Below are positions 12,074 to 45,102 of a DNA stretch of 64,000 bases, one piece after another (position 1 is the stretch's first letter; the number at the start of each line of letters is the position of its first letter). Under the pieces are notes generated by a model. It worked only from the letters and a program-made list of their open reading frames with translations. It was not told where the DNA came from and searched no databases. Origin of the DNA: a virus. Taxonomy: Duplodnaviria; Caudoviricetes. Where the stretch lies: the IMG/VR virus record IMGVR_UViG_3300034062_006701. One strand, 5' to 3'. A program made the position numbers and the translations under genes.

Positions 12074-12949
12074 ATGAACAAAACACGCAATCTCGTTGAA
12101 ATGGGTGAATTTTATTCTTCAACCGTACTTACAGAGTCTAAGAAGAACAGCCAGTCTAAATTCCCTGGCAAGGATACATTTACAAAGCCTGGTAAGACTG
12201 TCGATGCAGAAACAGTAAAGACAGGAAAAGCATTTAATGATGCAGGTCCTGTCCGCAACAACAAAGAAGCTCTCGTAAAGGCGCAGGAGCCTGTTGCCGT
12301 GAAAGATAAGGAAACATTTACAGGTGTGGAAAATTTTTCTCAAGTATCTGGAAAAAAATTAAAGGAGAATATAAATACTTTTATGAACAAATCTATTTTT
12401 GATCGCTTATACGAGGACGTAATGTCCGATAACATTAATTCACCAGCTGATCTCGAACAGGCTGACGCAGAGGCTCTTGAGCTTCCTGGTACAGAGGTTG
12501 AGGAAGGCGAAGTAACAATCACACTTGATCGCGAGCTCGCAAAGAAGCTTCATGACGTTCTTATGACCGTTCTTGACTCAGAAGAAGAAGCGCCTGAGAC
12601 TGAAGAAGAAGGTGCACCTGAAGAGGGTGAAATCTCTGATGAGGCAGCTGAAGATGAGCATGAAGATGAAGAGCATGAAGATGAAGAGCATAAGGCAAAG
12701 TATGAAGCAACTGAACTCACTGAGCTTCCAGCTAGCAAAGGTCACTCTTTAACAGGTAAGAGCAACAAGGTTCACGGTACAGCTACAAGTCTTGTATCAA
12801 AGGGTGAGGGTGAAGGCAAGGTTAAGGGTGAAATCGATGCAAAGGGCTCTGATCTTAGCGACAGCAAGGGTCATTCCTTAACAAGCAAGAACAATAAGGT
12901 TACATCAAAGACATCCAAAGTTGGATCATACCTCGCGGGTCTTAAGTAA
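12074..12949 (+). CDS. Acidic late protein, possible prohead core/scaffold-type component
   Basis: TATAAATA at 12055-12062; E/D-rich centre, K-rich ends; strong terminator follows. Confidence 0.5.
   Translation: MNKTRNLVEMGEFYSSTVLTESKKNSQSKFPGKDTFTKPGKTVDAETVKTGKAFNDAGPVRNNKEALVKAQEPVAVKDKETFTGVENFSQVSGKKLKENINTFMNKSIFDRLYEDVMSDNINSPADLEQADAEALELPGTEVEEGEVTITLDRELAKKLHDVLMTVLDSEEEAPETEEEGAPEEGEISDEAAEDEHEDEEHEDEEHKAKYEATELTELPASKGHSLTGKSNKVHGTATSLVSKGEGEGKVKGEIDAKGSDLSDSKGHSLTSKNNKVTSKTSKVGSYLAGLK
12370..12377 (+). promoter_or_regulatory. Intragenic late promoter TATAAATA
   Basis: Exact consensus 5 nt upstream of an in-frame ATG. Confidence 0.6.
12383..12949 (+). CDS. Putative nested in-frame short isoform (from Met104)
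   Basis: Perfect TATAAATA at 12370-12377, then 5 nt, then an in-frame ATG; AGGAG also upstream at 12363-12367. Confidence 0.5.
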   Translation: MNKSIFDRLYEDVMSDNINSPADLEQADAEALELPGTEVEEGEVTITLDRELAKKLHDVLMTVLDSEEEAPETEEEGAPEEGEISDEAAEDEHEDEEHEDEEHKAKYEATELTELPASKGHSLTGKSNKVHGTATSLVSKGEGEGKVKGEIDAKGSDLSDSKGHSLTSKNNKVTSKTSKVGSYLAGLK

Positions 12950-12975
12950 TATTAACAAAAAATAGATTATAAATT

Positions 12976-13007
12976 AAAAGGGCCTTAGCAATAAGGCCCT
13001 TTTTTTT
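12976..13007 (+). terminator. Rho-independent terminator
   Basis: GGGCCTTA-GCAA-TAAGGCCC stem-loop followed by T8; A4 on the 5' side. Confidence 0.9.
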
Positions 13008-13021
13008 GCTTAAATACTTAC

Positions 13022-13402
13022 GTGAATAGTTTCAAAGTTTTTTTTGAGCGTAATAACTTTAACCCGAACATAAACAGTAAGGGTGATTTTGTAAAATCTA
13101 GGCATCTAAATATTACAGGTGTTCCTGATCATAGTCCCACCAGTCGTCAATCAAAGAATGTAGCTAAATTTGTGCCTGATAGTCATCGCACTATACATTC
13201 CAATAATAAACTCAAAGCATTACTTAACAATGGTAGCACAGCACCGGTGAAGATAACTGACGCTGATGTCCGTCAAATTGAAGCAGAATTTCCACCGGTT
13301 AAATACGATCCAAGCAAACCAAAAAAGCTTGGCAATACAGGTGTAGTTCTAAGATATGATCATGCACTTAATAGCCCTGTAATCGAAAAGCCTGCCACAT
13401 AA
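13022..13402 (+). CDS. Hypothetical late protein
   Basis: TAAATA 5 nt upstream of the GTG; N-terminus MNSFKVFFE. Confidence 0.7.
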   Translation: MNSFKVFFERNNFNPNINSKGDFVKSRHLNITGVPDHSPTSRQSKNVAKFVPDSHRTIHSNNKLKALLNNGSTAPVKITDADVRQIEAEFPPVKYDPSKPKKLGNTGVVLRYDHALNSPVIEKPAT

Positions 13403-14136
13403 TGAGTACTATAACAAAAGAATATTACACAGGTGATCCTGAGCCAAAGGTATATCCTCTTACATTTGAGGATAATACTTGCTTCCGTTATACTGACAAA
13501 GAAAATAACGCAAGTGAGCGTATTATATATTCTAATTACTGGCGTGAACAGATTAACCTCTACGGACAAAAAATACAATACTATGTAAATACGTTTAGCA
13601 CGCTTTCTGCGGACATGCTTTACGGTGAACAACCAACACAACAATTTGCACCGCCGCTTCCACTCATTATTGCAGTTAACCTTAATGAGAATGCTCTCAT
13701 GCTTAGTAAATACGGTCTATTATCAGAAGATGAAGTTACTGCATTTGTTCATATTAGTGCTTTTTATGATCGCTTTGGCTGGGGAAGAGAACCGAAGTCT
13801 GGCGATGTATTTCAGTTATCAGAATACGGGAGTGATAGACCGGGTGGCAGAGATGGTAGGTTTTACGAAATTACTGAACGCCTCGATCAGGATATTGCTC
13901 AAATAAATCCTTTAGCCGGTCATTACGTCTGGCTAATAAAGGCAAAACGGTTTGAATGGTCCTTTGAGCCTGGTTTATCAGGAAGCGCAGTTAATCAACA
14001 GGTGTATGATGATACACTTGCCCCTGGTGTTCTAGGTGCACAGAAGCCATACACGTTTGATGTAAATCAGGCATCTCGCAATATTTTCGACTACACGCAG
14101 ACCGATTATAGTGATGTGTACGGCGGGTACATGTAA
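13402..14136 (+). CDS. gp14: Neck (head-tail connector) protein
   Basis: 'EQINLYGQKIQYY...YGE...LSKYGLLSEDEVT...EPKSGD...FYEIT...YVW.IKAKRFE' gp14 pattern. Confidence 0.8.
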   Translation: MSTITKEYYTGDPEPKVYPLTFEDNTCFRYTDKENNASERIIYSNYWREQINLYGQKIQYYVNTFSTLSADMLYGEQPTQQFAPPLPLIIAVNLNENALMLSKYGLLSEDEVTAFVHISAFYDRFGWGREPKSGDVFQLSEYGSDRPGGRDGRFYEITERLDQDIAQINPLAGHYVWLIKAKRFEWSFEPGLSGSAVNQQVYDDTLAPGVLGAQKPYTFDVNQASRNIFDYTQTDYSDVYGGYM

Positions 14137-14415
14137 TTAAATGTCGTTACTTCTCGATGCATAACGAGCATCATAATCAGGCAAAATTTCATTACGCAGC
14201 CCTGCAATAAATAGATCAGCTTCACGCGCAGAATTAAATTGCATTTCAACGTTGCTTTTATCTGCACCTGTGAATGTGTACTGTAGACCTGTATCACAGC
14301 TCTTGATTGTAGCTAAGCGATATGCAGTGTTTACTGAAAATACGTTTTCTTTTGATTTGTAGCCGCGTTTTGGATCTGGTTTTACGCTAAAGCTAGTGCC
14401 TGTGATGTAGTGCAT
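14137..14415 (-). CDS. Hypothetical protein
   Basis: ORF in a tightly overlapping minus-strand run. Confidence 0.6.
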   Translation of the reverse strand: MHYITGTSFSVKPDPKRGYKSKENVFSVNTAYRLATIKSCDTGLQYTFTGADKSNVEMQFNSAREADLFIAGLRNEILPDYDARYASRSNDI

Positions 14416-14693
14416 GGTATACGGACGTTATTAATTTCTTTAATACGTTCAATCTCTTCTAAATCAGATTTCATAGAAAGAAAACGCTCATCGATATATT
14501 TCTGAAACGCTAAGGGCTTAATCCAATCTATATCATTACCTGGAGAACGTCGTTTGAGTTGCTCCACTCTCTTCCCAACAAGATCAATTCCTTCTAGCAG
14601 ACAAAGCCATCTTGCGTATTCATCATACGACATGCTGTGTTGGCTTGCTTCAACTTCTACATTACTTGTTCTTTTTGACGATATCGATTGCAT
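14382..14693 (-). CDS. Hypothetical protein
   Basis: ORF overlapping both neighbours; 'WIKPLAFQKYIDERF' looks protein-like. Confidence 0.6.
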   Translation of the reverse strand: MQSISSKRTSNVEVEASQHSMSYDEYARWLCLLEGIDLVGKRVEQLKRRSPGNDIDWIKPLAFQKYIDERFLSMKSDLEEIERIKEINNVRIPCTTSQALALA

Positions 14694-15105
14694 ATCCGAG
14701 TATTATGTAGGAAAATTTAAGAACGTCAATAATATTCTCACTCTTATTCAAAGTACATGTCAATGTATGTAATGATGTAAGATTACCAATGATACTAATA
14801 ATATTTTTTTTGTATGTATTAACGATTTCTGGTTTTATATCTTCATTTATTTTACTTTCAGCTATCGCTTTAATCATAGTCTCACAATAAAGATGTAAGA
14901 GATTATTAATGTAATTAATACCTGCTGTGTCTTTTTTATAGAAAGCTAATCCTTCTTCTAATGATTTATAATATTGAGACGGTGTTATCTGTCGTATACG
15001 ACTCTCTATTTCGTTAAATGAAACGGTGCTTTCAGACGACTGAGGGATAAACGGATCTGATACTCTATCAACCGTTAATTCATTAATACTATCGGGTATG
15101 TTCAT
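14662..15105 (-). CDS. Hypothetical protein
   Basis: ATGA overlap with the upstream gene. Confidence 0.6.
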   Translation of the reverse strand: MNIPDSINELTVDRVSDPFIPQSSESTVSFNEIESRIRQITPSQYYKSLEEGLAFYKKDTAGINYINNLLHLYCETMIKAIAESKINEDIKPEIVNTYKKNIISIIGNLTSLHTLTCTLNKSENIIDVLKFSYIILGYAIDIVKKNK

Positions 15106-15515
15106 ACTTTACTGTTGGGAATAGGAGGTAACTCTATATTTGCAATAGTTTCTGTAATTAACGCTGTCTCAGGCACTATATATACACCGATATGTTTCGT
15201 GCAGTGATTGCATTTATATGAATTATTTGTGTTGAGAACGATAGGTACATACTCTGTTTTCTTGAGAGAACATGGGCATGTGACTTCGAGTCCCTGTAAG
15301 GAGAATTCCTTTATACGCTCATTTTCGAGTTGTTTATTTTTTAGTTGTACTACAGCCTCGAGACATAGGATAAATGCATAATACAAACCAAACTGGCTAA
15401 TGATACACGCCAAGAACCCCATTACAGCACTTATACCGAGCTGTTGTAATATTATTGAACCTACAGTCGCGACAGTGAGTAGTATTAAAATTTGTGTGAT
15501 GAATCTAGCTGCCAT
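15102..15515 (-). CDS. Membrane protein with CxC/CxxC zinc-ribbon motif
   Basis: Two hydrophobic N-terminal segments; 'VTCPCS...YKCNHC'. Confidence 0.6.
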   Translation of the reverse strand: MAARFITQILILLTVATVGSIILQQLGISAVMGFLACIISQFGLYYAFILCLEAVVQLKNKQLENERIKEFSLQGLEVTCPCSLKKTEYVPIVLNTNNSYKCNHCTKHIGVYIVPETALITETIANIELPPIPNSKV

Positions 15516-15543
15516 TATCTATTAATATAGATCATTTAATCAA

Positions 15544-15918
15544 TTAATCAAGACCGTCTTTTAATACAGTGAATATCTTTTTTAGTTCTGTGAGTGAATT
15601 ATTGAGACAGTCAATTACGCTTTTAATCTCGGCAACAGCTTTATCGTCTTCTTTGATGTTCGGGTTATTAAGAGCTGTTTTAAACATGTTTACACAGTTA
15701 CTGTGATTTGTCATTAAATCACCTAGAACGGGAACGACATTAGGCAGTGGGTACGCTAGTAAGTCATCTGCCTTTGAATTGTTAGGGCTCTGATCAGATA
15801 TATTACCAAACAGGTCTTTGAATTTCGTGCGCTGAGCGCTAAATTCACGACTTGCTTGTCCGGAAACCCATTTATTATAGTACGATACTGTATCCTCAAA
15901 TAGAACCTTCTTTTTCAT
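15544..15918 (-). CDS. Hypothetical late protein
   Basis: TAAATA 7 nt upstream of the ATG. Confidence 0.65.
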   Translation of the reverse strand: MKKKVLFEDTVSYYNKWVSGQASREFSAQRTKFKDLFGNISDQSPNNSKADDLLAYPLPNVVPVLGDLMTNHSNCVNMFKTALNNPNIKEDDKAVAEIKSVIDCLNNSLTELKKIFTVLKDGLD

Positions 15919-15925
15919 GTGAAAT

Positions 15926-15947
15926 TATTTAATCGCTGCAATAAATA
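15926..15947. promoter_or_regulatory. Back-to-back late promoters
   Basis: TAAATA on the minus strand (15926-15931) and the plus strand (15942-15947), 7 and 5 nt from their starts. Confidence 0.75.
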
Positions 15948-15952
15948 CTATT

Positions 15953-16354
15953 ATGAGTTATTTTAAGTCAAGATTCGACTATATTTTAGAGGCTGACAGT
16001 GAAGAAGCGCCGGTGCCTTCAACGGACCGTGAAGCAATGGCTCAGCAACTTGATACAGCGGCTCCTGAAGATCTCGACGTACGGCCTGCCGAAAGAGCCG
16101 CACGAATTGATCACTCAAAATTAGAACAAGCTAATGCTCTTAACGATTGGATTAAACAGATAGATGTGTTTATAAATTTTTTAAACGGTACAGACAGCAC
16201 ATCAATACAATCTCAACTACACGCTGCGTCTTGTGATACAATGTTTGAAGATATAGCGAGAAGTGAAAAAAAGAAAATTGCACGTCTTGCTGCTGAACTT
16301 AGCTCGCTTAGTGAGTCTTTCAAAGGTTATCTTATTTCATCAAACGATCGCTGA
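15953..16354 (+). CDS. Hypothetical late protein, putative internal head protein
   Basis: TAAATA 5 nt upstream; N-terminus MSYFKSRFDYILE-AD. Confidence 0.65.
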   Translation: MSYFKSRFDYILEADSEEAPVPSTDREAMAQQLDTAAPEDLDVRPAERAARIDHSKLEQANALNDWIKQIDVFINFLNGTDSTSIQSQLHAASCDTMFEDIARSEKKKIARLAAELSSLSESFKGYLISSNDR

Positions 16355-17371
16355 TAACATCAGCTTTGCTTTTAACCCGTTGTGTGAGTTTCTTATAAAG
16401 AAATCAGGCGATATTTGGTTAATGTTTGCAGCTATACAAACATCATTTATATCCTTATAAGATTTACCAATTTTTTCCGGCCACATAAATACAGTCTCAC
16501 CGTTATCTATTAATTTTTTAGTTTTCAATTTACTTGCTTTATCCAGCCATTGGCTGTCTAATACCCATATTCTTTTATGGAATTTGAGATTATTGATTTG
16601 CGATTCCTGAATACCTGAAAACATTTTATCGCTCTTTTCTTGTATACCTGCAACAGCTGTACCGTTTTTCACAAAAAAAGCATCTATCGGACCCTCAAAT
16701 ATAAAAATATATTCAAGATCGGCTGTTATTTCATTAATGTTGTAGAGAGACTTGTCACCGTTTATTTTGCTCAAATATTTCGGTGTCTTGTCTAAATTAG
16801 ATTTAATAATTGTTCTAGATTGATAGAAGGTAATTTCATCTTCGGTGTTGTAAAACGGTATTACAAGACGATTCTTATGCACTTTATCAGTTAAAGAAAT
16901 CCATAATGACCTTGGTCTATTAATAGCGGTATCGAGCTTACGCCGTTGTATTAATTCAATTGCCTCTTTAACTACGTGATTGTCTCTATGGTATTCCACC
17001 TGCATTGGATCAAAGAGATTAATGCAATCAAGAGGTAGCTTGTGCTCATGTTTCTCAGTTATACCTACAGGTTCTTCACGCGAGATATCTACAGGTAATA
17101 CATCATAGGTATTAATTTCATTGAGTATCTCCCTATAAGTCTGACCAGATAACTCCTGTATCCATTTTACCGGGTTACTGTACCAACCACAATTGTGACA
17201 ACAAATTACATTATCTTTCGTTAGATAGTAACATCTACGCTTCTTAAGCCAGGAGTTACCTTCACGACAAATAGGACATGAGCCTTGATACGTATGATTA
17301 TACCCATTGTGCTTTACACCACCTGAGTATGTATAAAACTTCTGTACAACGTATTCTTGAGGTATAGTCAC
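16340..17371 (-). CDS. gp61: DNA primase
   Basis: Zinc finger 'CPIC..G...CCHNCG'; TOPRIM 'IFIFEGPIDAFF', 'WVLDS', 'KDIND'. Confidence 0.93.
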   Translation of the reverse strand: MTIPQEYVVQKFYTYSGGVKHNGYNHTYQGSCPICREGNSWLKKRRCYYLTKDNVICCHNCGWYSNPVKWIQELSGQTYREILNEINTYDVLPVDISREEPVGITEKHEHKLPLDCINLFDPMQVEYHRDNHVVKEAIELIQRRKLDTAINRPRSLWISLTDKVHKNRLVIPFYNTEDEITFYQSRTIIKSNLDKTPKYLSKINGDKSLYNINEITADLEYIFIFEGPIDAFFVKNGTAVAGIQEKSDKMFSGIQESQINNLKFHKRIWVLDSQWLDKASKLKTKKLIDNGETVFMWPEKIGKSYKDINDVCIAANINQISPDFFIRNSHNGLKAKLMLSAIV

Positions 17372-17409
17372 AAATATAATTTTATATTATATTTGCAAAG
17401 ATAACAAGT

Positions 17410-17595
17410 CTATTTTTTGGTTTCTGAAATATCTCTTACAGAGACAATACCTTTACGAATAAAGGATCCAGAGGCGGGGTCAATATATTCTGCTTCAACG
17501 ATTTCTTGTTGATTGCGAATATATGTCTTAAGTCTCGGCTTAACGGGTTCACCGCTAATAGGTGATTGAATAATCTTCGGTTGAATTAGATCCAT
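17410..17595 (-). CDS. Small hypothetical late protein
   Basis: TAAATA 5 nt upstream of the ATG. Confidence 0.65.
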   Translation of the reverse strand: MDLIQPKIIQSPISGEPVKPRLKTYIRNQQEIVEAEYIDPASGSFIRKGIVSVRDISETKK

Positions 17596-17603
17596 GTAAT
17601 TAT

Positions 17604-17915
17604 TTAATCTTCACTGCGTTTCGATTCAACTTTGTTTTTTTTGTGTTGTAGCTTACAGGTCGCATAAACGTATCTGGGTAACCTCTCAACGACCTCGAGT
17701 ATATGCTCACTAATACCTATTACAAATTTCTCGTGCGAGATTACTCTGTTCTTCATATCAGGTAATGATAGGAAAGAATGTTCATCCTTCACATCTTCGA
17801 TGTATACCAGTAACTCACCGAGTAGCGCACCTTTAGTAACAGCATAAATATAGCCTGGATGCGGCTTTTTATTTTTCTTAAAAAGATTCTTAACCTTGTT
17901 CGCTAGTGTCTTCAT
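17604..17915 (-). CDS. Hypothetical protein
   Basis: ORF in a packed operon. Confidence 0.6.
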   Translation of the reverse strand: MKTLANKVKNLFKKNKKPHPGYIYAVTKGALLGELLVYIEDVKDEHSFLSLPDMKNRVISHEKFVIGISEHILEVVERLPRYVYATCKLQHKKNKVESKRSED

Positions 17916-18225
17916 CTATGTGATGATTATGAAAATATTTGTTAATTAACGTCACTAGTGAGTCTGCTTCTTGTTGATTCCGCGCCGATATACAGTGTAT
18001 TGGTTCGCCGTCAAATGTATACCCAAGGATCATAAACGAAGATAAAAACTCCTCTACGACTGAAGAGAGTGTGCGCAAGTCTTTTTTAACGATAGATTCA
18101 TTTTTAAGCTTTTCCTGTAAAGAAGCAGCCATGGCTTGCTTAATTAGCTCTTTCGCTTGAGGATCAAGACTCGTGTCAAATTTCTTTAATTTTGTTTTTT
18201 TATTCTGCTTCTTGTCGCTCATCAT
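17890..18225 (-). CDS. Hypothetical protein
   Basis: TAAATA 3-6 nt upstream of tandem ATGs. Confidence 0.65.
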   Translation of the reverse strand: MMSDKKQNKKTKLKKFDTSLDPQAKELIKQAMAASLQEKLKNESIVKKDLRTLSSVVEEFLSSFMILGYTFDGEPIHCISARNQQEADSLVTLINKYFHNHHIDEDTSEQG

Positions 18226-18574: not shown

Positions 18575-18581
18575 ATGTATA

Positions 18582-19316: not shown

Positions 19317-19321
19317 GATTT

Positions 19322-19350
19322 ATTATAAATTAATCTTGTAATAAAATCAA
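19322..19350 (-). promoter_or_regulatory. Sigma70-type early promoter (gp45)
   Basis: TTGATT-17-TATAAT, 5 nt upstream of the ATG. Confidence 0.8.
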
Positions 19351-19363
19351 TTAGTTTGATTAG

Positions 19364-24459: not shown

Positions 24460-25338
24460 ATGAATACAGACGTTAACCTTATTTTTGAAGCTTATAGAAA
24501 TAATATTCTCGGTGAAATGGCCTTACAGGTAAAAGATAAGACAAACGCTGAAAAATCACTTATAGATGCGATTACACACGGCATTGAAACAAGAACCGGT
24601 GATACCTATCTTTTTAAGGGACTACAGGGAGAAGAGTTAAAGCAGAGGGTAGAAGAGTTAGTTGTACCTATCATCAGAGACCTCTTCCAGGATGGCGTGT
24701 ATGCAGGTCGTTCAAGTGGAGATCTTAAAGAGTTAGAATATGATCTTCTCGAGAAGTTAGCGGCTTCAAACCCGAGAGCGAAGTCTCAGTATACAGCGAG
24801 AATTTTAAGAAGCTTTATCGCTAGCGTCGTTGATGAGGTTGAAGGTTCTGTAGAGCAGGGCGAAACAATAGAAAATGCTTCCGATGATATCGCAGACGCT
24901 GTTGTTGACGGGGCAGAGAAGTCAGACGAAATTGCTCAGTCAGAAGCTCCAAGTGATTCAGAACAAGAACCGGTAGCAGCTCCATCAGACCGTATTACAA
25001 CAAGAATTGAAAAACTAATCGCTGATCTCGTTGATGATTCAGGTGTTCTCGAGACAGGTGTCGTTAAGGACGTGGGGCAGCAAATTCTTGATAGCGGTGG
25101 TCTTGGTCTTCAGGAGGGTCAAATTACCGGTAAGGTTAAAGCTATCGTCAATGACCTCGTTAAAAAGCAGGTATTTGAAAGAAAGGGCCAGTATTTAAAG
25201 CTCGGCAGTAATTTTGAAAAATTCGAGCAAGGTGGTAGTGACTCTTCTGTTTTATCCGATGAAGATTTAATAACTACTGTCACTGGCTACGGTCAACGAC
25301 CAACATCAGGTCGCGAGTTCTGGGGTGGACAAGAATAA
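24460..25338 (+). CDS. Acidic hypothetical late protein
   Basis: TAAATA 10 nt upstream; inserted on the opposite strand between gat and queC. Confidence 0.7.
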   Translation: MNTDVNLIFEAYRNNILGEMALQVKDKTNAEKSLIDAITHGIETRTGDTYLFKGLQGEELKQRVEELVVPIIRDLFQDGVYAGRSSGDLKELEYDLLEKLAASNPRAKSQYTARILRSFIASVVDEVEGSVEQGETIENASDDIADAVVDGAEKSDEIAQSEAPSDSEQEPVAAPSDRITTRIEKLIADLVDDSGVLETGVVKDVGQQILDSGGLGLQEGQITGKVKAIVNDLVKKQVFERKGQYLKLGSNFEKFEQGGSDSSVLSDEDLITTVTGYGQRPTSGREFWGGQE

Positions 25339-25344
25339 TTCGAT

Positions 25345-26043
25345 CTAGTCGATTAACTTCTCCCATGGAATACTCTTTGAATAAGAGAGTGGGTCTCTAG
25401 TTCCTGCTTGTATAAACCCTTGAAGGCGTAAAGAGCAAGCCGTGCATTCACCGCACGCTGTGTCAGTACCTTCATAACAAGTCCATGTCTGGTTAAAATC
25501 AACGCCTAATGATATACCCATTTCAATAATTTCCTGCTTTGATTTTGTAATTAACGGTGCCTCTATATTAATTTTATTCATGCGATTTAACTTTATAACA
25601 TCGTTAATTGCATGAATAAATGAATCCGCACCATCCCAAAAACCTGCAACACTATCAGCCTGTGCGGCTCCGTGATAAACAGTACTTGCACCAAAGCTCT
25701 CTGCAAACGAGCATGCAATACTTAACAACATCATGTTTCTAAACGGTACATAATTTACTGTTTGCGCCTCGCCGCATACGTCTCTTGTCTTAGCTACATT
25801 AATACTGTGGTCAGTTAGTGACGATGCACCTATGTCCTTAAAAAATGGTAAGTTAATAATTTGATGCTTGCGGATTTTATCCTTTAAAGCATTTACCTGA
25901 AATTGTGCGCATTCGAGCTCTTTAATATGTCTCTGACCATAATCAAAAGAGATAGCATACACGTCGTCATAATTCGCAGCTGCATGGTGTAGTAACACAG
26001 TACTATCCATACCACCGGAAATTGGCACAACAACGCCGCTCAT
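25345..26043 (-). CDS. queC: 7-cyano-7-deazaguanine synthase
   Basis: 'SGGMDS', 'FDYGQRH', 'YVPFRN', 'TWTCY...CGEC.AC..R'. Confidence 0.95.
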   Translation of the reverse strand: MSGVVVPISGGMDSTVLLHHAAANYDDVYAISFDYGQRHIKELECAQFQVNALKDKIRKHQIINLPFFKDIGASSLTDHSINVAKTRDVCGEAQTVNYVPFRNMMLLSIACSFAESFGASTVYHGAAQADSVAGFWDGADSFIHAINDVIKLNRMNKINIEAPLITKSKQEIIEMGISLGVDFNQTWTCYEGTDTACGECTACSLRLQGFIQAGTRDPLSYSKSIPWEKLID

Positions 26044-36845: not shown

Positions 36846-37130
36846 ATGAGCTGCTTTAACAATCTTGTAAATAAAATTTTAATGGAAATGGCTGCTAACG
36901 TCGCTGGAGGTGCTGCTAGTGTAACAGGCCCTTCAACATCTGGAGATTATGGTAATCAATTTCCCTCTCAAAATAGTAAGGCGTACGCAGATGGTGATGC
37001 TCGTATAGCTGTACCTCTTGGGATGAAGAATCCTTACCGTAAACAAATACAAGGAAAGAAAAAATCTAGTAAAAAGGCAGTAAAAGTACCGATACAAAGA
37101 CGGTCTAGTGTTTATTTACCGGGAATGTAA
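36846..37130 (+). CDS. Hypothetical protein (putative processed head protein)
   Basis: N-terminus '...KILME-MAAN', low-complexity body, basic tail. Confidence 0.55.
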   Translation: MSCFNNLVNKILMEMAANVAGGAASVTGPSTSGDYGNQFPSQNSKAYADGDARIAVPLGMKNPYRKQIQGKKKSSKKAVKVPIQRRSSVYLPGM

Positions 37131-37142
37131 TATATACTACAC

Positions 37143-37568
37143 ATGGATTACGGGCATTGGATTTTAAATGAAGGTGTTATTATCGATAATACAACATTTG
37201 GCTTCATCTACCTAATTGTCAATAACATTACGGGTAAGAAATATATTGGTAAGAAACAATGTACAAGTCGAGTTAAGCGTAAGCCATTAAAAGGTAAAAA
37301 AAAGAGTAGAATAGATCATAAGGAATCTGATTGGAAAACATACACCAGTTCATCCAATGATTTAAACATTGATATTGCAAAGCACGGAAAAGAGAGCTTT
37401 ACATTTAGAATATTGCGTACATGTGATTCAAAGTGGGCTCTAGCATATTATGAAATAAAAGAGCAGTTAGGTGAGGACGTTCTTTTGCGCGAAGACTATT
37501 ATAATGGTATCTGCAACGTTAGGATCGGTAAAGCTCCTAAACAGGAGCTTGCAAAATTTAAATTATAG
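37143..37568 (+). CDS. GIY-YIG nuclease, endonuclease II-like
   Basis: 'GFIYLIVN..TGKKYIGKK...WKTYTSS...F.F.IL...E...YYN'; single short domain. Confidence 0.8.
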   Translation: MDYGHWILNEGVIIDNTTFGFIYLIVNNITGKKYIGKKQCTSRVKRKPLKGKKKSRIDHKESDWKTYTSSSNDLNIDIAKHGKESFTFRILRTCDSKWALAYYEIKEQLGEDVLLREDYYNGICNVRIGKAPKQELAKFKL

Positions 37569-37583
37569 TGTTATAATGTATTA

Positions 37584-38156: not shown

Positions 38157-38172
38157 AAGATAAATACTTCAT

Positions 38173-38622
38173 ATGAAGTTTTTAGATAGAATAAATGCAC
38201 AGATACAACTTCTTGAGGCTGATGTCAATACATCGGGCACTGAAGCGGTGGATGCTGCTGAGCCAGCTACTGATGTAAGTGCTGTTGCTTCAGATGCTGG
38301 TGTTGCACCAGTTGCTCCTGAAGGTTATGTTGATCTTGTTAAATTAATAGCGAAAGCCACAGCTATGAATTTTCCAGCTGGTGCACTTGATGAAATATTT
38401 CGGACTGAAATAACGGCTGAAAACGCATTTCCAATGCAACAAGCTTTAGAAGCAGCTATAAAACAAAACGAAATGTATTCAGATAATCCTGAACGATTAC
38501 AGAATATACATTATAAGCAGTTTACAGATAGTATTAACCCCGGTAATTTTATTCAAAAATATAAAACATTAATATCTACACTAAAGAAACAAGACCCCTA
38601 TATTAAAGATGCTAACATTTAA
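38173..38622 (+). CDS. Hypothetical late protein, putative internal head protein
   Basis: TAAATA 6 nt upstream; MKFLDRINAQIQLLE-AD. Confidence 0.7.
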   Translation: MKFLDRINAQIQLLEADVNTSGTEAVDAAEPATDVSAVASDAGVAPVAPEGYVDLVKLIAKATAMNFPAGALDEIFRTEITAENAFPMQQALEAAIKQNEMYSDNPERLQNIHYKQFTDSINPGNFIQKYKTLISTLKKQDPYIKDANI

Positions 38623-39850
38623 GACATATCACAATTATCTAGCTACACCGAGTAATCATCTTCTAGAGGAAGGTGGCGCGGCAGGACACATGTCACATCC
38701 GTTTGATTTGCCTACAGTCCGTACCGGTAAAGATCTCATTAATTTATTTGAAAAAATAAAACTATCACTTAAGGAAACACCAGCTGTAGTTAAGATTGAT
38801 GGTGTAAATGTATCAATAAAGCTTGTTACAAATGCAGATGGTAGTATGGAATTTGGATTAGATAGAGGTTCAAAGAACCCTCTTGATATTAAGGGAATTA
38901 CAATAAATGATCTTTCGTCGCGATTCGCAGAAGGTCATGGTTTACTCGAAGTAGGTAAAACTGTTTTAGAAATCTTTAATAAAGCCTTACCTATAATTAC
39001 TAAAGATCTTAACAAGCTAGGTCTTATTAAAAATAAAAATCTTATATTTAACACGGAATATGTTGCAGGTAGTACGAATGTTGTTGGATATGCAGAGAAC
39101 TTTCTCGCAATACACGGTGTTAATGAAGCGTACGAAGTTAAGAGTCCTGTTCGCGGTTCTGTATCAAGAAAAACACGTGAAGTATCATATAATAAAGAGG
39201 CTTTAGATGATATGATACAAAAAATTAATCCTATTGCAAAAAATTACGGATTCAAAGTATATAGCTCAATACCTGCTACAATAAAAGGTAATGTAAACTT
39301 ATTACCTATACTCAATACCGAATTAGTGGTCAAGTATACGTCAGAGCATGCAGAAGCTAAAACAATGAGAGCTTGGCTTGAGAGATGCGGTAATCCTGTT
39401 GGTACGTCTATTAAGACAGTACAAGGCAAAACAGTTGACGCAGTAAGTAAGGAGCTCTATTTAAAAATATTGAACGGTACACCTCTCGATCAAATCGTAA
39501 AAGATAATGACAAAGAGCAGGTTAATGCAGCTGTTTGCGGTGCGATTATCTATCACGCCACAAGATTACTTGGTCAGGCTATTTTAGATGCTATGACATC
39601 ATCAATTGGTGATCTTAATACTCAAGAAGGTATTGTAATACGCGACACAAAAATATCATCAACACCTTTCAAAATAACGGGTGAGTTTATTGTACGTGGA
39701 ATGGCAAGTGCGTTTAAGAAAGAGGAGGAAGAATCACAGCCTCTAACAAGAAAGTCTTACTTGAGCAATAAATCATTTTATGTAATTAACCCTCCGAGGG
39801 GACATGAGGGTGGAGCTAATACATATACACCAGGAATGGAGAATTGGTAA
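38609..39850 (+). CDS. Covalent nucleotidyltransferase (RNA ligase-like fold)
   Basis: Motif I 'VKIDG', Ia 'DRG', III 'FNTEY', IV 'EGIVIRD', V 'FKITG'; no C-terminal OB domain. Confidence 0.65.
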   Translation: MLTFKTYHNYLATPSNHLLEEGGAAGHMSHPFDLPTVRTGKDLINLFEKIKLSLKETPAVVKIDGVNVSIKLVTNADGSMEFGLDRGSKNPLDIKGITINDLSSRFAEGHGLLEVGKTVLEIFNKALPIITKDLNKLGLIKNKNLIFNTEYVAGSTNVVGYAENFLAIHGVNEAYEVKSPVRGSVSRKTREVSYNKEALDDMIQKINPIAKNYGFKVYSSIPATIKGNVNLLPILNTELVVKYTSEHAEAKTMRAWLERCGNPVGTSIKTVQGKTVDAVSKELYLKILNGTPLDQIVKDNDKEQVNAAVCGAIIYHATRLLGQAILDAMTSSIGDLNTQEGIVIRDTKISSTPFKITGEFIVRGMASAFKKEEEESQPLTRKSYLSNKSFYVINPPRGHEGGANTYTPGMENW

Positions 39851-40467
39851 TGAAGTACAATGTCCTTATCGAGAAGATACTAACTAGTCTTACACCTTCT
39901 ACAAATAAAGCTATTTTTATTTTCGGTAGGATGAATCCTCCTACCTTAGGACATGAATTATTAATTGCTAAAGCTGTAGAGTTGGGTAGAAAAGAAAACC
40001 GCGATTGTTATGTCTTCCTTACAAAGACACAGGACAGCAAAAAAAATCCTATACACTTTCCTGAAAAGCTAAAAGCAATTAATGCTGCACTACCATCTGT
40101 AAATTTTATTAATTCTGACAATATTAAGACGATTTTTGATGCTGTTGGTTTTTTAATAGATAGTGGCTATAATGATCTTGTTCTCGTCGCAGGTAGTGAC
40201 AGAGCAGGTGAATATGATTCGTTATTTCAAAAATATATTAATAACCCTGATCCAGAAAAGCGATTAAATTTAGTAAGTTTCCGTACTGCAGTAGCAGGTG
40301 AAAATAGAGACCCAGATAGTGATGATGCTTCTGGTGTTAGTGCGACGAAAGCGCGTAATTTAGCAAAGTCAGGTGACTTCACCTCCTTTCGTAAAGTACT
40401 ACCTACGGGTATGCCTGAGTCGGAGGCAAAAGTTCTTTTCGATCAAATCCGTCAAAACTTAAAATAA
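39844..40467 (+). CDS. HIGH-superfamily nucleotidyltransferase (cytidylyltransferase/NMNAT-like)
   Basis: 'FGRMNPPTLGH', 'VAGSDR', 'SATKAR'. Confidence 0.85.
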   Translation: MVMKYNVLIEKILTSLTPSTNKAIFIFGRMNPPTLGHELLIAKAVELGRKENRDCYVFLTKTQDSKKNPIHFPEKLKAINAALPSVNFINSDNIKTIFDAVGFLIDSGYNDLVLVAGSDRAGEYDSLFQKYINNPDPEKRLNLVSFRTAVAGENRDPDSDDASGVSATKARNLAKSGDFTSFRKVLPTGMPESEAKVLFDQIRQNLK

Positions 40468-40468
40468 A

Positions 40469-41086
40469 CTAAGCTTCAAGCATTTTTATCATACTATACA
40501 CAGCACCTTCAACTCGTTCCTTTGGCTGTGTTTGCATGATTTGTTTAATTTTATTAATTAGATCAACACCACCGTTGTCTATACTACTATATAGATCCTG
40601 TTCAGTCTTTTCTTCAATTTCAATGTCGTGGTCTACTCTTTGTTTAAACTCTTCATAATCTTTATAACTAAGAGCACTATTAATACCTTCAACAGCTTTG
40701 GATATTTTATCTGTTATCCATGGCTCAATTTCACTATCACAAGGAATAATATCATACAACATAGCAGACATTTTTGTAATCCTGTAGAGGTTTTGTTTGA
40801 CCATGTTTGATGCCTTTTCTACTGGATGTTCACCTGTCTCATGGTAGTCATCATATTCGGGTTGTGTTTCCTTTCTTGCTAACACAATGTCATCTTCTGA
40901 CGTAATCTTTCTTTTATCAATCATGCAGCCGCATTCTTCAGCGTCTTCACCTTCAACTTTACCACACTTACATGATCTAATAGGAGCTTCGTAATTTTCT
41001 GCTTTTGGTCCTAGACCAACATTTTCTTTTATCAAAATTCTACGAGTATATAGATTATTGAGTTCTTCAAGGTAACTGATTGACAT
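40469..41086 (-). CDS. Hypothetical late protein
   Basis: TAAATA 9 nt upstream; 'M....L..I...S..L...I....E...W...KI..A' helical pattern. Confidence 0.65.
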   Translation of the reverse strand: MSISYLEELNNLYTRRILIKENVGLGPKAENYEAPIRSCKCGKVEGEDAEECGCMIDKRKITSEDDIVLARKETQPEYDDYHETGEHPVEKASNMVKQNLYRITKMSAMLYDIIPCDSEIEPWITDKISKAVEGINSALSYKDYEEFKQRVDHDIEIEEKTEQDLYSSIDNGGVDLINKIKQIMQTQPKERVEGAVYSMIKMLEA

Positions 41087-41095
41087 AGGTAATAT

Positions 41096-41117
41096 TATTT
41101 ATTCTCAACACTAAATA
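41096..41117. promoter_or_regulatory. Back-to-back late promoters
   Basis: TAAATA on the minus strand (41096-41101) and the plus strand (41112-41117); same 10 nt gap as the pair at 15926-15947. Confidence 0.75.
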
Positions 41118-41122
41118 ATATT

Positions 41123-41398
41123 ATGCAATGTTTGTTTGAGCGTTATTTTATTGAAGAGTTAACCCTTGAGAGTGGTAGATGTACAAAAGTAACAAAACAA
41201 ATGGCATCATCTCGTGCAGATAAGAAGTATATGAGGTGTACACGTGTAGATGGTAAGCTTAAGCGTGTACATTATGGTGATCCAAATCTACGCATTAAAA
41301 AGAGTAATCCTAAGAAGAGAAAGTCCTTTAGAGCGCGTCATAAGTGCAGTACCGCAAAGCCCGGTACTGCAAAATATTTTTCTTGTAAAAACTGGTAA
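41123..41398 (+). CDS. Small basic Cys-containing late protein
   Basis: TAAATA 5 nt upstream; 'VHYGDP...RKSFRARHKC...YFSCKNW'. Confidence 0.7.
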   Translation: MQCLFERYFIEELTLESGRCTKVTKQMASSRADKKYMRCTRVDGKLKRVHYGDPNLRIKKSNPKKRKSFRARHKCSTAKPGTAKYFSCKNW

Positions 41399-41400
41399 TA

Positions 41401-41808
41401 ATGAGAACATTTAAGGAATATACAAATAATCGACCTGTGCTAGGTGTAATCGAAACAATCGTTGTTGATGGTGTAGGGGAAGTCTTAGCTAAAATAGACA
41501 GCGGAAACGAAGCTCATAATGTCCTACATGGTGTAGATATACAGTATAACGGGGACAGTATTACCTTTAATACTATTAATAATAAGCAATTAACTCTTCA
41601 GAAGACCGGTGAAATCGATATTAATATCGGTAGCGGTAACATCGAAAAAAGACCGACTGTTAGTCTAAATTTTGAATTAAAAAATCAGCCCTACCGTGAT
41701 ATAACTTTTAGTATCGCAGATAGGGCTGATAATGAACAACAAGTGTTAATAGGTGAGCCATTTATTCGTAAAATAAATGCTCTTATCGATGTAAAGATAG
41801 AGAATTAA
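41401..41808 (+). CDS. Retropepsin-like aspartic protease (RimK-associated type)
   Basis: 'LAKIDSGN', 'RP.V', 'FSIADR', 'VLIG..F'; N-terminus MRTFKEY. Confidence 0.75.
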
Positions 41809-42458
41809 GTCTTTTTAATATCAGCAATAAAGTTGTAAAACTCAGCACGTGTTGCTGGGTCATCAAGGAAATCACCACTAAGTTTACTCGTCTTCATCTC
41901 ACATCCATCGTGCTTTACCCCACGTAGACAGGCACATGTATGTGTAGCACTAATTACCACAGCGACACCCATATTCTTCTCACATACCTCATTAATTGCG
42001 TCATGAATTTGAACTGTTAGACCTTCCTGTATTTGAGGTCTACGGGCATAAAACTCTACAATTCGATTAAGTTTCGAGAGACCGATAACACGACCGTCGC
42101 TTGATGGTATATATGCCACATGCGCACGACCGGTAAATGCGAGGTGATGGTGTGAGCACATCGATTTAACAGGTATACCGCCTTGAAACACCATTCCATC
42201 ATATCCGTTACTCGGGAACGATGTAATCTTTGGTGGTACATCAAAACAACCGGCAGCTAGATCATTTACAAATGCTTTTGCAACGCGCAGTGGCGTATTT
42301 GTACTATTAGGGTCATTACGCCAGTCAAAACCGAGCGCATCCAGATACGCTTCATACGCCTTAGCTGCGTTAGTAATTATAGCTTGCTTCTCTTCAGGAG
42401 AATGTGGGTGGTTACCGTTAGCAAATTTAAGTTTATACTCTTTTGTATATTCAGACAT
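41805..42458 (-). CDS. folE: GTP cyclohydrolase I
   Basis: 'NTPLRVAK', 'SMCSHH', 'GLSKLNRIV...RRPQIQE', 'H.C..LRG'; start moved to MSEY. Confidence 0.96.
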
Positions 42459-42464
42459 AACGTT

Positions 42465-42500
42465 ATTATACATGTACTGCAATCATTTTCAACATAAATA
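42465..42500. promoter_or_regulatory. Early promoter (folE, minus) back-to-back with a late promoter (plus)
   Basis: TTGAAA-16-TATAAT on the minus strand; TAAATA at 42495-42500 on the plus strand. Confidence 0.7.
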
Positions 42501-42506
42501 ATATAG

Positions 42507-42947
42507 ATGATGAAATTTGATCGCTTAATGTTTGAAAGTATACAGAAGACGAATCTGAAAAAGGTTCGTATCAAAGTAGATCCCGCAAACGTCAGTGTAG
42601 CTGAAGATCTTGCGAAATGTAACGGTTATGAGGGATATGTATTAGCGGAAGGGCAGGCAGAAACTAAAATAATGGTTATTGTACCGGATAATATCAGTGA
42701 TATGCCAGTAATAGACGTACCGAATAATTGTATACAACAGCTAATACAGCGACCGGATTCAATGGAACTGGATAAATTCAAACAGTTTTTAATAAATTCT
42801 CTAAATGTTTCTGATGACGATCCACTATTAACTCACATCGTCTCTTGTAATACGATTGACGATATAGAAGTTTTTTTAAAGGATAGTAGCTTTACAGAAG
42901 AGGATATAACGAAACTTTATAAATATTATATAACCTATGGTGAGTGA
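42507..42947 (+). CDS. Hypothetical late protein
   Basis: TAAATA 6 nt upstream; MMKFDRLMFE-S. Confidence 0.7.
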   Translation: MMKFDRLMFESIQKTNLKKVRIKVDPANVSVAEDLAKCNGYEGYVLAEGQAETKIMVIVPDNISDMPVIDVPNNCIQQLIQRPDSMELDKFKQFLINSLNVSDDDPLLTHIVSCNTIDDIEVFLKDSSFTEEDITKLYKYYITYGE

Positions 42948-43743
42948 ATTTGATAATTTAGCAAGAGTTGCTCTAAACGAAGCAAGTCTCGGTGATTATA
43001 TGAAAGCAGTGAAAAGCGCTACAGCAAAAGCCGCTAAAGGTGTTGCGAAGAGTGCAGTTAGAGGTCTTGCTCAATTACCAGGCGCTGCGATTAAGGGAGC
43101 GGGTATGGCATATAGTGCTGTCGGTGGTAAGCAGGGCGGTGCATTAATGCAGAGAGCTGGAAGTGCTTTGCAAAAAGCAGGTCTCACGGCAGTTACAGCA
43201 CCGGTGAAGATGTGGAGGGATTTAAAGACAGCTGCAGAAAGACAAGAATATATTAGACAAAATTTAGAACCTATAAAACTTTTTATTAATAGTAATTTTC
43301 CAACACTTACGACGCGGCAGAGAAGAACTTTAAATCAGGTACAGGATTTTGAACAGCTCGATACGTTTGTTCGAACAAACATTAAGGGTAAGTCACTTGA
43401 TACATTAATAAGTGATTACAACAAGAGAGCAGTAGCACAAGCAAGATTGAAGCAGCAACAATCAACACCATCAACGGTACAACCTGCATCTGTACCCACC
43501 ACAGCACCAGCATCTAAACAATTTAAACCAAAGCTAAAAGCAAATAGATCGATGGTAAAGGATACAAAGAGCGGTATTGTTTATCGGTATCTCGGTCGGG
43601 ATCAAGGTGGCTGGTATATATATGACCCGCTCACTAAAAAGATCGACCCGGCGCCAATTGACTCTAGAGACCAAAAAGCTGTTACTGCTTTATGGCGTAA
43701 AAAGGAAATAGCTAATAAAGCTGCAAAGCAATCGAGCAAATAA
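42937..43743 (+). CDS. Hypothetical Ala/Lys-rich late protein
   Basis: Overlaps the upstream gene; N-terminus '...EFDNLARVALNE-AS'. Confidence 0.65.
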   Translation: MVSEFDNLARVALNEASLGDYMKAVKSATAKAAKGVAKSAVRGLAQLPGAAIKGAGMAYSAVGGKQGGALMQRAGSALQKAGLTAVTAPVKMWRDLKTAAERQEYIRQNLEPIKLFINSNFPTLTTRQRRTLNQVQDFEQLDTFVRTNIKGKSLDTLISDYNKRAVAQARLKQQQSTPSTVQPASVPTTAPASKQFKPKLKANRSMVKDTKSGIVYRYLGRDQGGWYIYDPLTKKIDPAPIDSRDQKAVTALWRKKEIANKAAKQSSK

Positions 43744-43744
43744 T

Positions 43745-43927
43745 ATGCCTTATAATATTAAAAAGCAAGGTAGTGATTTTAAAGTTTGTAAAAAAATTGG
43801 TAATAAAAAATGTTTACCAGGTAAGTCTAAATCTAAAGCAATGGCGCAAAAGAGGATAACGGCTATTCATATGAATGAATCTTTTAATCAACGCGTCGAT
43901 AGTATATTAAAATCTTTAGGTGAGTAG
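43745..43927 (+). CDS. Small basic hypothetical protein
   Basis: 60 aa ORF starting 1 nt after the upstream stop. Confidence 0.55.
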   Translation: MPYNIKKQGSDFKVCKKIGNKKCLPGKSKSKAMAQKRITAIHMNESFNQRVDSILKSLGE

Positions 43928-44056
43928 TTGATTTTTATATTACAGGAATAAGTAAAATAGAAGATTAGAAAGTAAGAGAGAGGGAAGGGACGATAGACAG
44001 ACGTTTTTTTCTGGCATTCCTGTTGATTTCTGCTTTTACTAAGTCATACTATCTTT

Positions 44057-44695
44057 ATGAATTATCAGAGTACTAAACTAATTGAACTTGGATCCTGTGC
44101 ATTTAGACAATTTGGAGCTACCCACAGTCATTGTCATCTCGTTCATGGTTACCAGCTTAAGGCAAAATTCTATTTTGGATGTAGTGAGCTCGATAGTAAT
44201 AACTGGTCAGTTGATTTCGGCGGACTTAAACAACTTAAACAAATCCTCAACGATCAATTCGATCATACACTCTGCATTGCTGAAAATGATCCCTTACTTG
44301 AAGTCTTTCAACACTTACATAATCTAGGCGGGTGCAACTTAAAAATAATGTCTGGTGTAGGTATTGAGAAAACAGCTGAATGGTGCTTCAATGCTGCTTC
44401 ACAATTTCTTAAGAATGTATATGGTGATCGATGCTGGGTAGAGAAAGTTGAAGTATATGAGCATGAAAATAATTCCGCCATCTATTCAAAACCAACTTCA
44501 ATAGTCGCTCCAGAACATGTTCAAGCTATGACAACTCCTGTTTCTCGTGAAGAAAATACACCGGCACCTACAATTCCAGTGGAAACTACTCCAGAACAAC
44601 AAGTAACACCAAACCACCCTGTTAATGTAGGTAACAGTCGTGTAACGTCTGGTTATTCAGGTCTCTTTGATGGTATTAGTTGGGGTAGTAGATGA
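44057..44695 (+). CDS. queD: 6-carboxytetrahydropterin synthase with C-terminal extension
   Basis: 'HCHLVHGY', 'VDFGGLK', 'DH', 'E..AEW', 'VEVYEH..NSA'. Confidence 0.9.
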   Translation: MNYQSTKLIELGSCAFRQFGATHSHCHLVHGYQLKAKFYFGCSELDSNNWSVDFGGLKQLKQILNDQFDHTLCIAENDPLLEVFQHLHNLGGCNLKIMSGVGIEKTAEWCFNAASQFLKNVYGDRCWVEKVEVYEHENNSAIYSKPTSIVAPEHVQAMTTPVSREENTPAPTIPVETTPEQQVTPNHPVNVGNSRVTSGYSGLFDGISWGSR

Positions 44696-45102
44696 ACTTT
44701 GAGCATTTACAACAACTTTATGGCGGGGAAATATCTGATTATGTAAAAATACAAAACAAAACAGCTCCGGAGTATCATAATCAGATAGATAATGGTGATC
44801 AATTATCTAACATATATAACGCACAGGTTAAATCGAAGGGAAGCGTAAATGTAACAAATTCTTTTTTATCTTTTAATCCAAGAAATTTAATAGATCGGCC
44901 TGCAGAAGACCCTATTACCGCTTCTTTAAAGGAAACACTCAACAAGATAGCCGCAGAAATAGGTTTATCAGATGCGGATGGTGTTACATATCACCCTGAT
45001 TACAATCCGATGCTTAAAGACCAAACCAGTAATGATGTACAACAAGCTAACGACGCTGTTCAAAAGGCTTTAGATGAACTTAAAGCTTTGGGCGAGATTT
45101 AG
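44692..45102 (+). CDS. Hypothetical protein
   Basis: ATGA overlap with queD. Confidence 0.6.
   Translation: MNFEHLQQLYGGEISDYVKIQNKTAPEYHNQIDNGDQLSNIYNAQVKSKGSVNVTNSFLSFNPRNLIDRPAEDPITASLKETLNKIAAEIGLSDADGVTYHPDYNPMLKDQTSNDVQQANDAVQKALDELKALGEI

Follow-up and report, generated by a model that had tools for sequence, protein, structure and literature searches.

The capsid-targeting sequence (CTS) of bacteriophage T4 is the textbook route by which a phage smuggles proteins into its host along with its DNA. To our knowledge, work on it has been almost confined to T-even phages, with four cargo proteins. In the T4 genome (NC_000866), the leaders read MKTYQEFIAE↓A for the internal proteins (IPs) IPII and IPIII, MKTFKEFTSTTTPVSTITE↓A for IPI, MAKINELLRE↓S for gp24, MNEPQLLIE↓T for gp21 and MLKEQLIAE↓A for gp22 (here and below, the arrow marks the cut, mapped or predicted). 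For IPIII, targeting depends on residues 4 and 7 and processing on residues 8 and 10, and the cut falls after L/I-x-E; with Asp at position 10, the leader still targets but is no longer cut (PMC9026906). T4 ejects its IPs and Alt, and foreign proteins can be loaded by means of the CTS alone (PMC3012670, PMC9026906). A review has suggested that it lets T4-like phages load varied proteins (PMC9026906).

Here, we examined 64,000 nucleotides (nt) of DNA from an uncultured freshwater T4-like myovirus (IMG/VR record IMGVR_UViG_3300034062_006701; this whole stretch is hereafter the window). An initial annotation had proposed that about 15 otherwise unrelated late open reading frames (ORFs), between positions 12,074 and 45,102, share CTS-like leaders and encode a set of injected cargo proteins. 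The likeness of these leaders to the T4 CTS and prohead-protease leaders is real, and survived the tests described below. We put at about 60% the probability that most of the late proteins concerned (about 10-12 of 13) carry T4-type propeptides, by which they would be targeted to the prohead core and which a prohead protease would trim off. Among cultured phages, none has a large terminase more than 40% identical to that of the window (Sinorhizobium phage phiM9 is the nearest), and no near-identical DNA was found in the phage collection. With the terminase as query, 80 related IMG/VR loci were retrieved (56-90% identity); the 413-residue protein of ORF 38609, used alone as query, retrieved no relatives in viral contigs. 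Eight large related contigs (G001-G007 and G009, 79-185 kb) were used whole, and are syntenic with the window, gene for gene.

Every N-terminus quoted in the initial annotation was present as written at its coordinates, and an all-against-all BLASTP comparison returned no similarity between candidate families, so that their description as otherwise unrelated holds. The candidates, named by their first coordinate, are given below with their length in amino acids (aa) and the distance of the late promoter box, TAAATA, from the start codon.

12074-12949, plus strand: 291-aa acidic late protein, a weak member with MNKTRNLVE↓M; TAAATA 11 nt upstream
13022-13402, plus strand: 126-aa basic late protein with a GTG start and the T4-CTS-like (V/M)NSFKVFFE↓R; TAAATA 5 nt upstream
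15544-15918, minus strand: 124-aa late protein, near neutral (isoelectric point, pI, 6.6), with MKKKVLFE↓D; TAAATA 7 nt upstream
15953-16354, plus strand: 133-aa acidic late protein with MSYFKSRFDYILE↓AD; TAAATA 5 nt upstream
24460-25338, plus strand: 292-aa acidic late protein with MNTDVNLIFE↓AY; TAAATA 10 nt upstream
36846-37130, plus strand: 94-aa basic protein with the leader MSCFNNLVNKILME↓M (..KILME↓M), a copy of the N-arm of the major capsid protein (MCP), to which it matches by BLASTP, and a Lys-rich insert
38173-38622, plus strand: 149-aa acidic late protein, first gene of an operon, with MKFLDRINAQIQLLE↓AD (..QLLE↓AD) and a low-complexity linker after it; TAAATA 6 nt upstream
38609-39850, plus strand: 413-aa RNA-ligase-like nucleotidyltransferase with MLTFKTYHNYLATPSNHLLEE↓GGAAGHM (MLTFKTY..LLEE↓GG); operon gene after 38173
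39850-40467, plus strand: HIGH-motif (cytidylyltransferase-like) nucleotidyltransferase (PF01467, E = 4e-4) with MKYNVLIE↓K
40469-41086, minus strand: 205-aa acidic late protein with MSISYLEELNNLYTRRILIKE↓NVGLGP (..ILIKE↓N); TAAATA 9 nt upstream
41123-41398, plus strand: 91-aa basic Cys-rich late protein with MQCLFERYFIEELTLE↓S (..ELTLE↓S); TAAATA 5 nt upstream
41401-41808, plus strand: 135-aa retropepsin-fold (PF05618, RimB-like) domain with the T4 IPI-like start MRTFKEY..; 3 nt after the stop codon of 41123
42507-42947, plus strand: 146-aa acidic late protein with MMKFDRLMFE↓S; TAAATA 6 nt upstream
42937-43743, plus strand: 268-aa basic Ala/Lys/Gly-rich late protein with MVSEFDNLARVALNE↓AS (..VALNE↓AS); TAAATA 11 nt upstream

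The leaders are 8-21 residues long, lie at the extreme N-terminus and occur in three forms. The first, of 9-10 residues, is very near the T4 CTS (M-x-(T/S)-F-x-x-(F/Y)-hydrophobic-x-E). The second, on the 15953 and 38173 families, is a longer helix ending in LLE↓(A/Q)D and followed by an indel-rich, acidic, disordered linker. The third, M-N-x-D-x-x-L-I-F-E↓A-Y, is that of ORF 24460; it has 11 matches in the window and relatives against 0.08 expected, in at least 5 unrelated families, 10 of them behind TAAATA and one behind TAAGTA. Positions 4 and 7 are aromatic or hydrophobic in ORFs 13022, 38609, 41401 and 42507, and also in orthologues of 36846, 39850 and 41123. The long leaders of 15953, 38173, 40469 and 42937, as well as that of 24460, keep the hydrophobic pattern in a different register.

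Enrichment in late genes, a check proposed in the initial annotation, was borne out. In the window, [LIVMF]-x-E with its Glu at residues 8-16 occurs in 12 of the 20 genes with a late promoter versus 12 of the 64 others (p = 7e-4); at internal control positions its frequency is about 11-15% in late and other genes alike. N-termini starting with M-x-x-F followed by Lys or Glu number 4 in the window, against 0.55 expected. A strict CTS pattern (aromatic residue at 4, hydrophobic residues at 7 and 8, Glu at 9-10), drawn from the mapped T4 determinants and not from the window, matched 15 N-termini among the 1239 proteins of the window and relatives, against 1.5 expected from its internal frequency; ORFs 13022 and 42507 fit it. 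Across nine genome pieces (326 late and 882 other genes), hydrophobic-x-Glu shows a peak in late genes with Glu at residues 8, 9 and 10 (5.5, 7.1 and 7.7%, versus 1.4, 2.2 and 3.9% in the others), a distance that matches T4 gp21, gp22, gp24, IPII/III and Alt. Since orthologues are not independent, pooling makes the p-values look stronger than they are; tests confined to the window, and the positional peak, do not hinge on it in the same manner. Phe or Tyr at positions 3-5 was not enriched in late genes (32% versus 31%). The loose hydrophobic-x-Glu motif was rejected as a diagnostic after a control on 68 kb of T4, where it marked 36 of 113 ORFs (32%), about 8 of them head proteins; the strict pattern found IPII and IPIII only. 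The loose motif being unspecific, each candidate needs further support.

Conservation of the leaders was one such source. In orthologues down to about 30-45% identity, the aromatic residue at 4, the hydrophobic residues at 7-8 and the terminal Glu are kept. For the 413-aa family of ORF 38609 (1377 homologues, none with an assigned name; typical start MITFKQFLLE↓GG), 33 distinct 10-residue leaders share invariant F4, F7, [LIV]8 and E10, and vary at 2, 3, 5, 6 and 9; the four invariant positions are the determinants mapped experimentally in T4. The Glu at P1, just before the predicted cut, is present in 6 of 6 orthologues and in most of 120 homologues of this protein. The 15953 family has an invariant F8 and an E13 conserved at 90% or more among 28 aligned orthologues, ahead of its indel-rich linker, and P1 is Glu in 28 of 32 orthologues. 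For 15544, Glu at P1 and Asp at P1' are found in 23/25 and 21/25 orthologues, respectively, and for 42507, Glu at P1 and Ser at P1' in 5/5. Orthologues of 13022 keep F4 and FF7-8, with the Glu in 5/7 (e.g. MKSFKVFFE↓R, MLTFHKFFE↓N). The Glu is kept in all three orthologues of 24460 and all three of 40469, one of the latter (in G001) having a leader of the third form, MFRRDAELITE↓AY. Two orthologues of 41123, MKTFETIFLE↓S and MKSFETLFLE↓S, are strict CTS matches; orthologues of 39850 start MTFKRFLAE↓Q and MKFYELVLE↓I, those of 41401 MKTFKKFIQE↓R, MKTFKQYIQE↓K and MKTFKNFFIE↓K, and leaders of 38173 orthologues end in ..SLFLE↓VD, ..SLVTE↓AD and ..LSLE↓QD. The sole orthologue of 42937 reads MSSFDNLVSVALDE↓AS, giving Glu at P1 in 2/2, and a search of a protein Atlas yielded no usable relative for this ORF.

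Leaders are also set apart from the folded domains, as seen in AlphaFold2 (AF2) models of 38609 and 15953 and in ORF 41401, where the PF05618 domain begins at about residue 10. The 15953 protein is modelled as a leader helix (residues 2-14), an acidic disordered linker (15-44, low confidence) and a helical domain (45-132, confident); a Foldseek search of this model against viral structures returned only its own near-identical uncharacterised protein. PHROG and Pfam scans of the candidates gave almost no matches, and those other than 38609, 39850, 41401, 36846 and 15953 have no recognisable family, 41123 matching PHROG 7595 (function not assigned). Six candidates are basic (pI 8.7-10.3; the small basic ones 9.9-10.3) and seven acidic (pI 4.4-5.0), next to the near-neutral 15544.

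ORF 12074 was found at 49 related loci and matched no Pfam or PHROG family. It was considered as a gp13-like neck protein, for which the PHROG search gave no supporting match. A second leader-like segment, MNKSIFDRLYE↓D, lies inside it (12383-12420) at residue 104, where it opens the best-conserved part of the protein and is followed by a Glu/His-rich acidic run; it could serve as an internal start or mark a site of internal cleavage.

The late promoters described in the initial annotation were recovered. TAAATA lies 3-14 nt upstream of 20 of the 84 start codons of the window, against 0.7 expected, and these 20 genes include those of the tail sheath and tail tube together with eleven leader candidates, each with its own box 5-11 nt upstream. 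ORF 36846 has its box 23 nt upstream; 38609 and 41401 are the second genes of late operons and 39850 the third, all of them coupled downstream genes. Expression late, alongside the head genes, is supported at the promoter level. Most boxes are only 5-7 nt ahead of the late start codons (for early genes, a TATAAT-like box stands about 6 nt ahead), and with so short a spacing most mRNAs would be nearly leaderless. The shared N-termini might then reflect chance and a nucleotide constraint on how the coding region of late mRNAs begins (an A/T-rich "downstream box") and no protein signal at all, the codons of Lys, Asn, Phe and Ile being A/T-rich. Such an artefact is highly unlikely, because the pattern is missing from tail and baseplate genes whose box sits at the same distance (no such leaders occur on the tail sheath, tail tube and portal proteins, also behind late promoters), whereas the promoterless, operon-internal 38609, 39850 and 41401 have it, and because conservation at positions 4, 7, 8 and 10 is at the level of the amino-acid class, with variable neighbours. 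The Glu peak at residues 8-10 also lies beyond any plausible initiation region.

A T4-type head machinery is encoded in the lineage. All 5 large relatives considered (terminase identity 58-73%) have a PF03420 gp21-type protease and a gp23-type MCP, with a scaffold-like gene adjoining. Their protease starts with MALRLIVE↓T and their scaffold with MSTIIDVLKE↓AT, to be compared with T4 gp21 and gp22 above. A predicted complex between the G001 scaffold and a 96-aa leader protein scored 0.00, which bears on binding neither way. In the window, ORFs 60449 and 62245 had been considered as portal and protease; these assignments were rejected, the two being a helicase and a gp15 homologue.

ORF 36846 carries a free-standing copy of the MCP N-arm. 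BLASTP aligned it with a relative's MCP at E = 3e-10 and 54% identity over 41 residues. The alignment starts at the last Glu before the mature N-arm of the MCP, ..ENQEKWC(M/F)E↓A-NVAGG.. (an example from the relatives is L130:11592-13082), and runs via GNQFPSQN..AYA..D.R to ..IQRR..LPGM, opposite ..MIRRTFPEL in the MCP. As it begins at the predicted MCP cut, the leader of 36846 would occupy the place of the MCP propeptide and the two predicted cuts would be homologous. The MCP site WC(M/F)E↓A was taken simply as the last Glu before the conserved N-arm, and the alignment with T4 gp23, gap-rich in this region, does not fix it residue for residue. Among the homologues of 36846, 20 of 23 start with M-x-x-F and reach a Glu shortly before NVAGG. 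A gene of this type was present in all relatives covering that position.

As the initial annotation had proposed, enzymes figure among the leader proteins, or at least proteins that are enzyme-like by sequence or structure match: an RNA-ligase-like protein, a HIGH nucleotidyltransferase and a retropepsin-fold domain. In the first (38609), the motif VKIDG (KxDG) has K62, D64 and G65 invariant across 31 sequences. In its AF2 model, residues 2-25 have a predicted local distance difference test (pLDDT) score below 50, and the fold begins at about residue 24. Ligase domains account for nearly all of the 50 highest-ranked structural matches, led by T4 Rnl1 (Z = 8.6, root-mean-square deviation 4.7 Å over 186 residues). 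The score against Pfam RNA_ligase (PF09414) is 14.5 bits, under the cut-off of 27 (E = 0.04), and Foldseek E-values are 0.025 at best; such sub-cut-off scores point to a divergent relative, "ligase-like" and outside PF09414 membership. ORF 39850 is joined to 38609 by a TAATG overlap, read directly. In Microcystis phage Mel-JY01 (PP395634.1, 11243-13162), which encodes an S77 protease, a single 639-aa protein combines both enzymes in reverse order; the ligase-like protein and its HIGH partner therefore probably act together, in one pathway.

For the third (41401), the PF05618 "Zn_protease" profile matched 5/5 family members (best E = 7.6e-11), the window copy scoring 15.2 bits, below the cut-off of 27, and the family profile matched PDB 9g58 at E = 2e-7, with the domain starting at about residue 10. 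It has the motif D33-S34-G35; across the family, D33 and G35 do not vary, and position 34 is occupied by Ser or Thr. At positions 8-10, the window copy has Thr-Asn-Asn where four aligned orthologues have hydrophobic-x-Glu (Phe-Phe-Glu at 7-9 in that of G003).

By analogy with T4, a short amphipathic leader would dock each protein into the scaffolding core as the prohead assembles. Next, the leader would be cut off after its terminal Glu by a prohead protease of the gp21 type (S77), and the mature protein would stay inside the head. About a dozen of the leader proteins are probably head-internal on this model, and the three enzyme-like ones may, speculatively, be ejected with the DNA. Judged from their sequences, the proteins form a functionally mixed set, with acidic core- or scaffold-like members, a putative capsid-lining N-arm copy with a basic tail, small basic proteins and the three enzyme-like ones.

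Several observations weigh against the propeptide reading. At the level of the motif, there is the abundance of the loose pattern in T4. The putative P1 of ORF 12074 is Glu in 20/29 orthologues and Asp in 9/29, and ORF 44692, at the end of the range first proposed, has no leader. The window copy of 41401 has Asn at position 10, where its orthologues have Glu; going by the T4 rule, it might reach the head yet escape trimming. In the 413-aa family, the Glu abuts an invariant GG-x-x-GHM-x-HPFD motif, and in the fused Mel-JY01 homologue an I-A-E↓GG junction is internal (..NIIAE↓GGLGGHMNHPFD). This Glu could therefore be conserved for structural reasons, the Mel-JY01 junction being either an internal processing site or a sign that the Glu belongs to the enzyme's own motif. 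The conservation and synteny of the genes, which are scattered between replication genes, contrast with the variable ip loci of T4. The protease and scaffold genes of this genome itself lie just past the window end, the machinery having been read in relatives, and the nearest cultured phage to this uncultured lineage has 40% terminase identity.

Some of these points would suit another explanation, in which the leaders are amphipathic helices with a different role (oligomerisation, contact with another late partner or chaperone, or part of the protein's own fold) and the Glu is structural and uncut. Besides the junction of the ligase-like family, the Glu18 of 41401, which falls within the protease-fold PF05618 domain, and the frequency of the loose motif in T4 proteins outside the head fit such a role. 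It is nevertheless unlikely, since one short pattern recurs, equally far from Met1, in proteins of unrelated folds, this pattern equals the experimentally mapped T4 determinants, the leaders are modelled separate from the domains, and the protease and scaffold of the lineage have the pattern too.

Of the initial annotation, then, the capsid-targeting likeness stands, with leaders that match the T4 determinants and relatives that encode the protease. Most of the listed ORFs do carry a leader, but the count is about 13 and not 15; ORF 12074 is weak and 44692 leaderless. "Cargo set" was too strong a term. In full, that claim has all of the ~15 ORFs packaged and injected like T4 IPI*, as effectors or counter-defence proteins. 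It can appeal to the ejected IPs and Alt of T4 and to the loading of foreign proteins by the CTS (PMC3012670, PMC9026906). It can also appeal to the enzyme-like proteins with leaders (ligase-like, HIGH nucleotidyltransferase, PF05618 fold) and to several members that are small and basic like T4 IPs (pI 9.9-10.3). Against it are the structural or core-like members, i.e. the MCP N-arm copy and acidic proteins that resemble a prohead core or scaffold (15953, 38173), with a leader-linker-helical build modelled for 15953. In T4, core proteins of this type are degraded and not injected. Moreover, the genes are conserved core genes and not fast-turnover effectors. Injection of the whole set is distinctly unlikely. 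A mixed set that includes assembly or structural components is favoured instead by the conserved synteny, by the acidic members that look like core proteins and by the N-arm copy, itself suggestive of a structural role.

A more restricted proposal concerns the enzymes. The ligase-like protein, the HIGH nucleotidyltransferase and the retropepsin-fold protease would form a conserved kit, loaded via the leaders, delivered with the DNA and acting before phage gene expression. RNA cut by anticodon nucleases of the host might, for example, be repaired or modified, or a host protein cleaved. The free-standing N-arm with its basic tail would be a new capsid-lining, DNA-contacting protein. By analogy this is conceivable, though rather unlikely in its entirety.

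Other features of the region deserve mention. A SegE-type GIY-YIG homing-endonuclease-like gene (37143-37568, plus strand; PF19835, E = 2e-29) lies between late genes, at the same position in 5/5 relatives examined, which is unusual for a mobile gene. Genes for 7-deazaguanine (queuosine precursor) synthesis are dispersed among the late genes: a QueC-like candidate, from its N-terminal motif alone (25345-26043, minus strand), and a set comprising a GTP cyclohydrolase I, a QueD/PTPS and a DUF366 gene (loci 41805-42482, minus strand; 44057-44695, plus strand; 58318-58905, plus strand). A phoH gene (45080-45910, minus strand) has a late promoter. Finally, a block of glycosyltransferase and methyltransferase genes (48307-58287, plus strand) is mostly without counterpart in the syntenic relatives: between 49163 and 58287, 8 of 11 genes have no tblastn match and 2 of 11 a weak partial match only, and genes on both flanks are conserved. 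This block looks like a lineage-specific insertion.

The concept of CTS loading is already in the literature. What is new here is a distant freshwater lineage with about a dozen conserved families, three leader forms, enzyme-like members and an MCP N-arm copy. If the propeptide reading is true, the tag would be ancient and widespread in distant, environmentally abundant T4-like phages, and the head-internal proteome could be predicted from sequence alone, half the window giving about a dozen families. Nucleic-acid enzymes and a protease would be among its members, and it would supply uncultured phages with candidates for counter-defence or take-over functions delivered by injection, as well as natural leader variants for protein packaging in T4-type capsids. 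The free-standing MCP N-arm copy is a separate structural oddity, for which no literature search for a precedent was made.

Among described systems, T4 IPI, IPII, IPIII and Alt resemble the candidates in having a leader of 10-19 residues with an aromatic residue at 4, hydrophobic or aromatic residues at 7-8 and a terminal L/I-x-E. The IPI start MKTFKEFT.. and MKTYQEFIAE can be set beside MRTFKEY.. and MLTFKTY.. in the window and, as typical of their families, MITFKQFLLE and MKTFKKFIQE. Further common points are that expression is late, that the lineage has a gp21-type protease, that the protein bodies are otherwise unrelated and that at least one of them is an enzyme (Alt in T4). Unlike T4, which has 4 such families in all, the window has about 13 in 33 kb; its genes are conserved and syntenic where the T4 ones are hypervariable, with three leader forms versus one, and several of the bodies, known here from genes alone, look acidic or structural.

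The prohead proteins of T4 come close as well: gp22, gp21, gp67, gp68 and gp24 start with short leaders, closed at residues 6-10 by hydrophobic-x-Glu. In size and charge, gp67 and gp68 are similar to the acidic candidates 15953, 38173 and 12074; no homology to these two was detected for the candidates with PHROG and Pfam. Unlike those of the T4 prohead core, the candidate genes are spread among replication genes, outside the head module. In the giant phages phiKZ, 201phi2-1 and SPN3US, head-internal proteins are likewise cut after Glu by a gp21 relative, and enzymes are packaged (PMC9026906). The giant phages have proteomic proof of this, S/A/G-x-E motifs, long propeptides and a genome organisation that is not T4-like, whereas the present set, read from gene sequences, has very short leaders with the hydrophobic-x-E of the T4 type.

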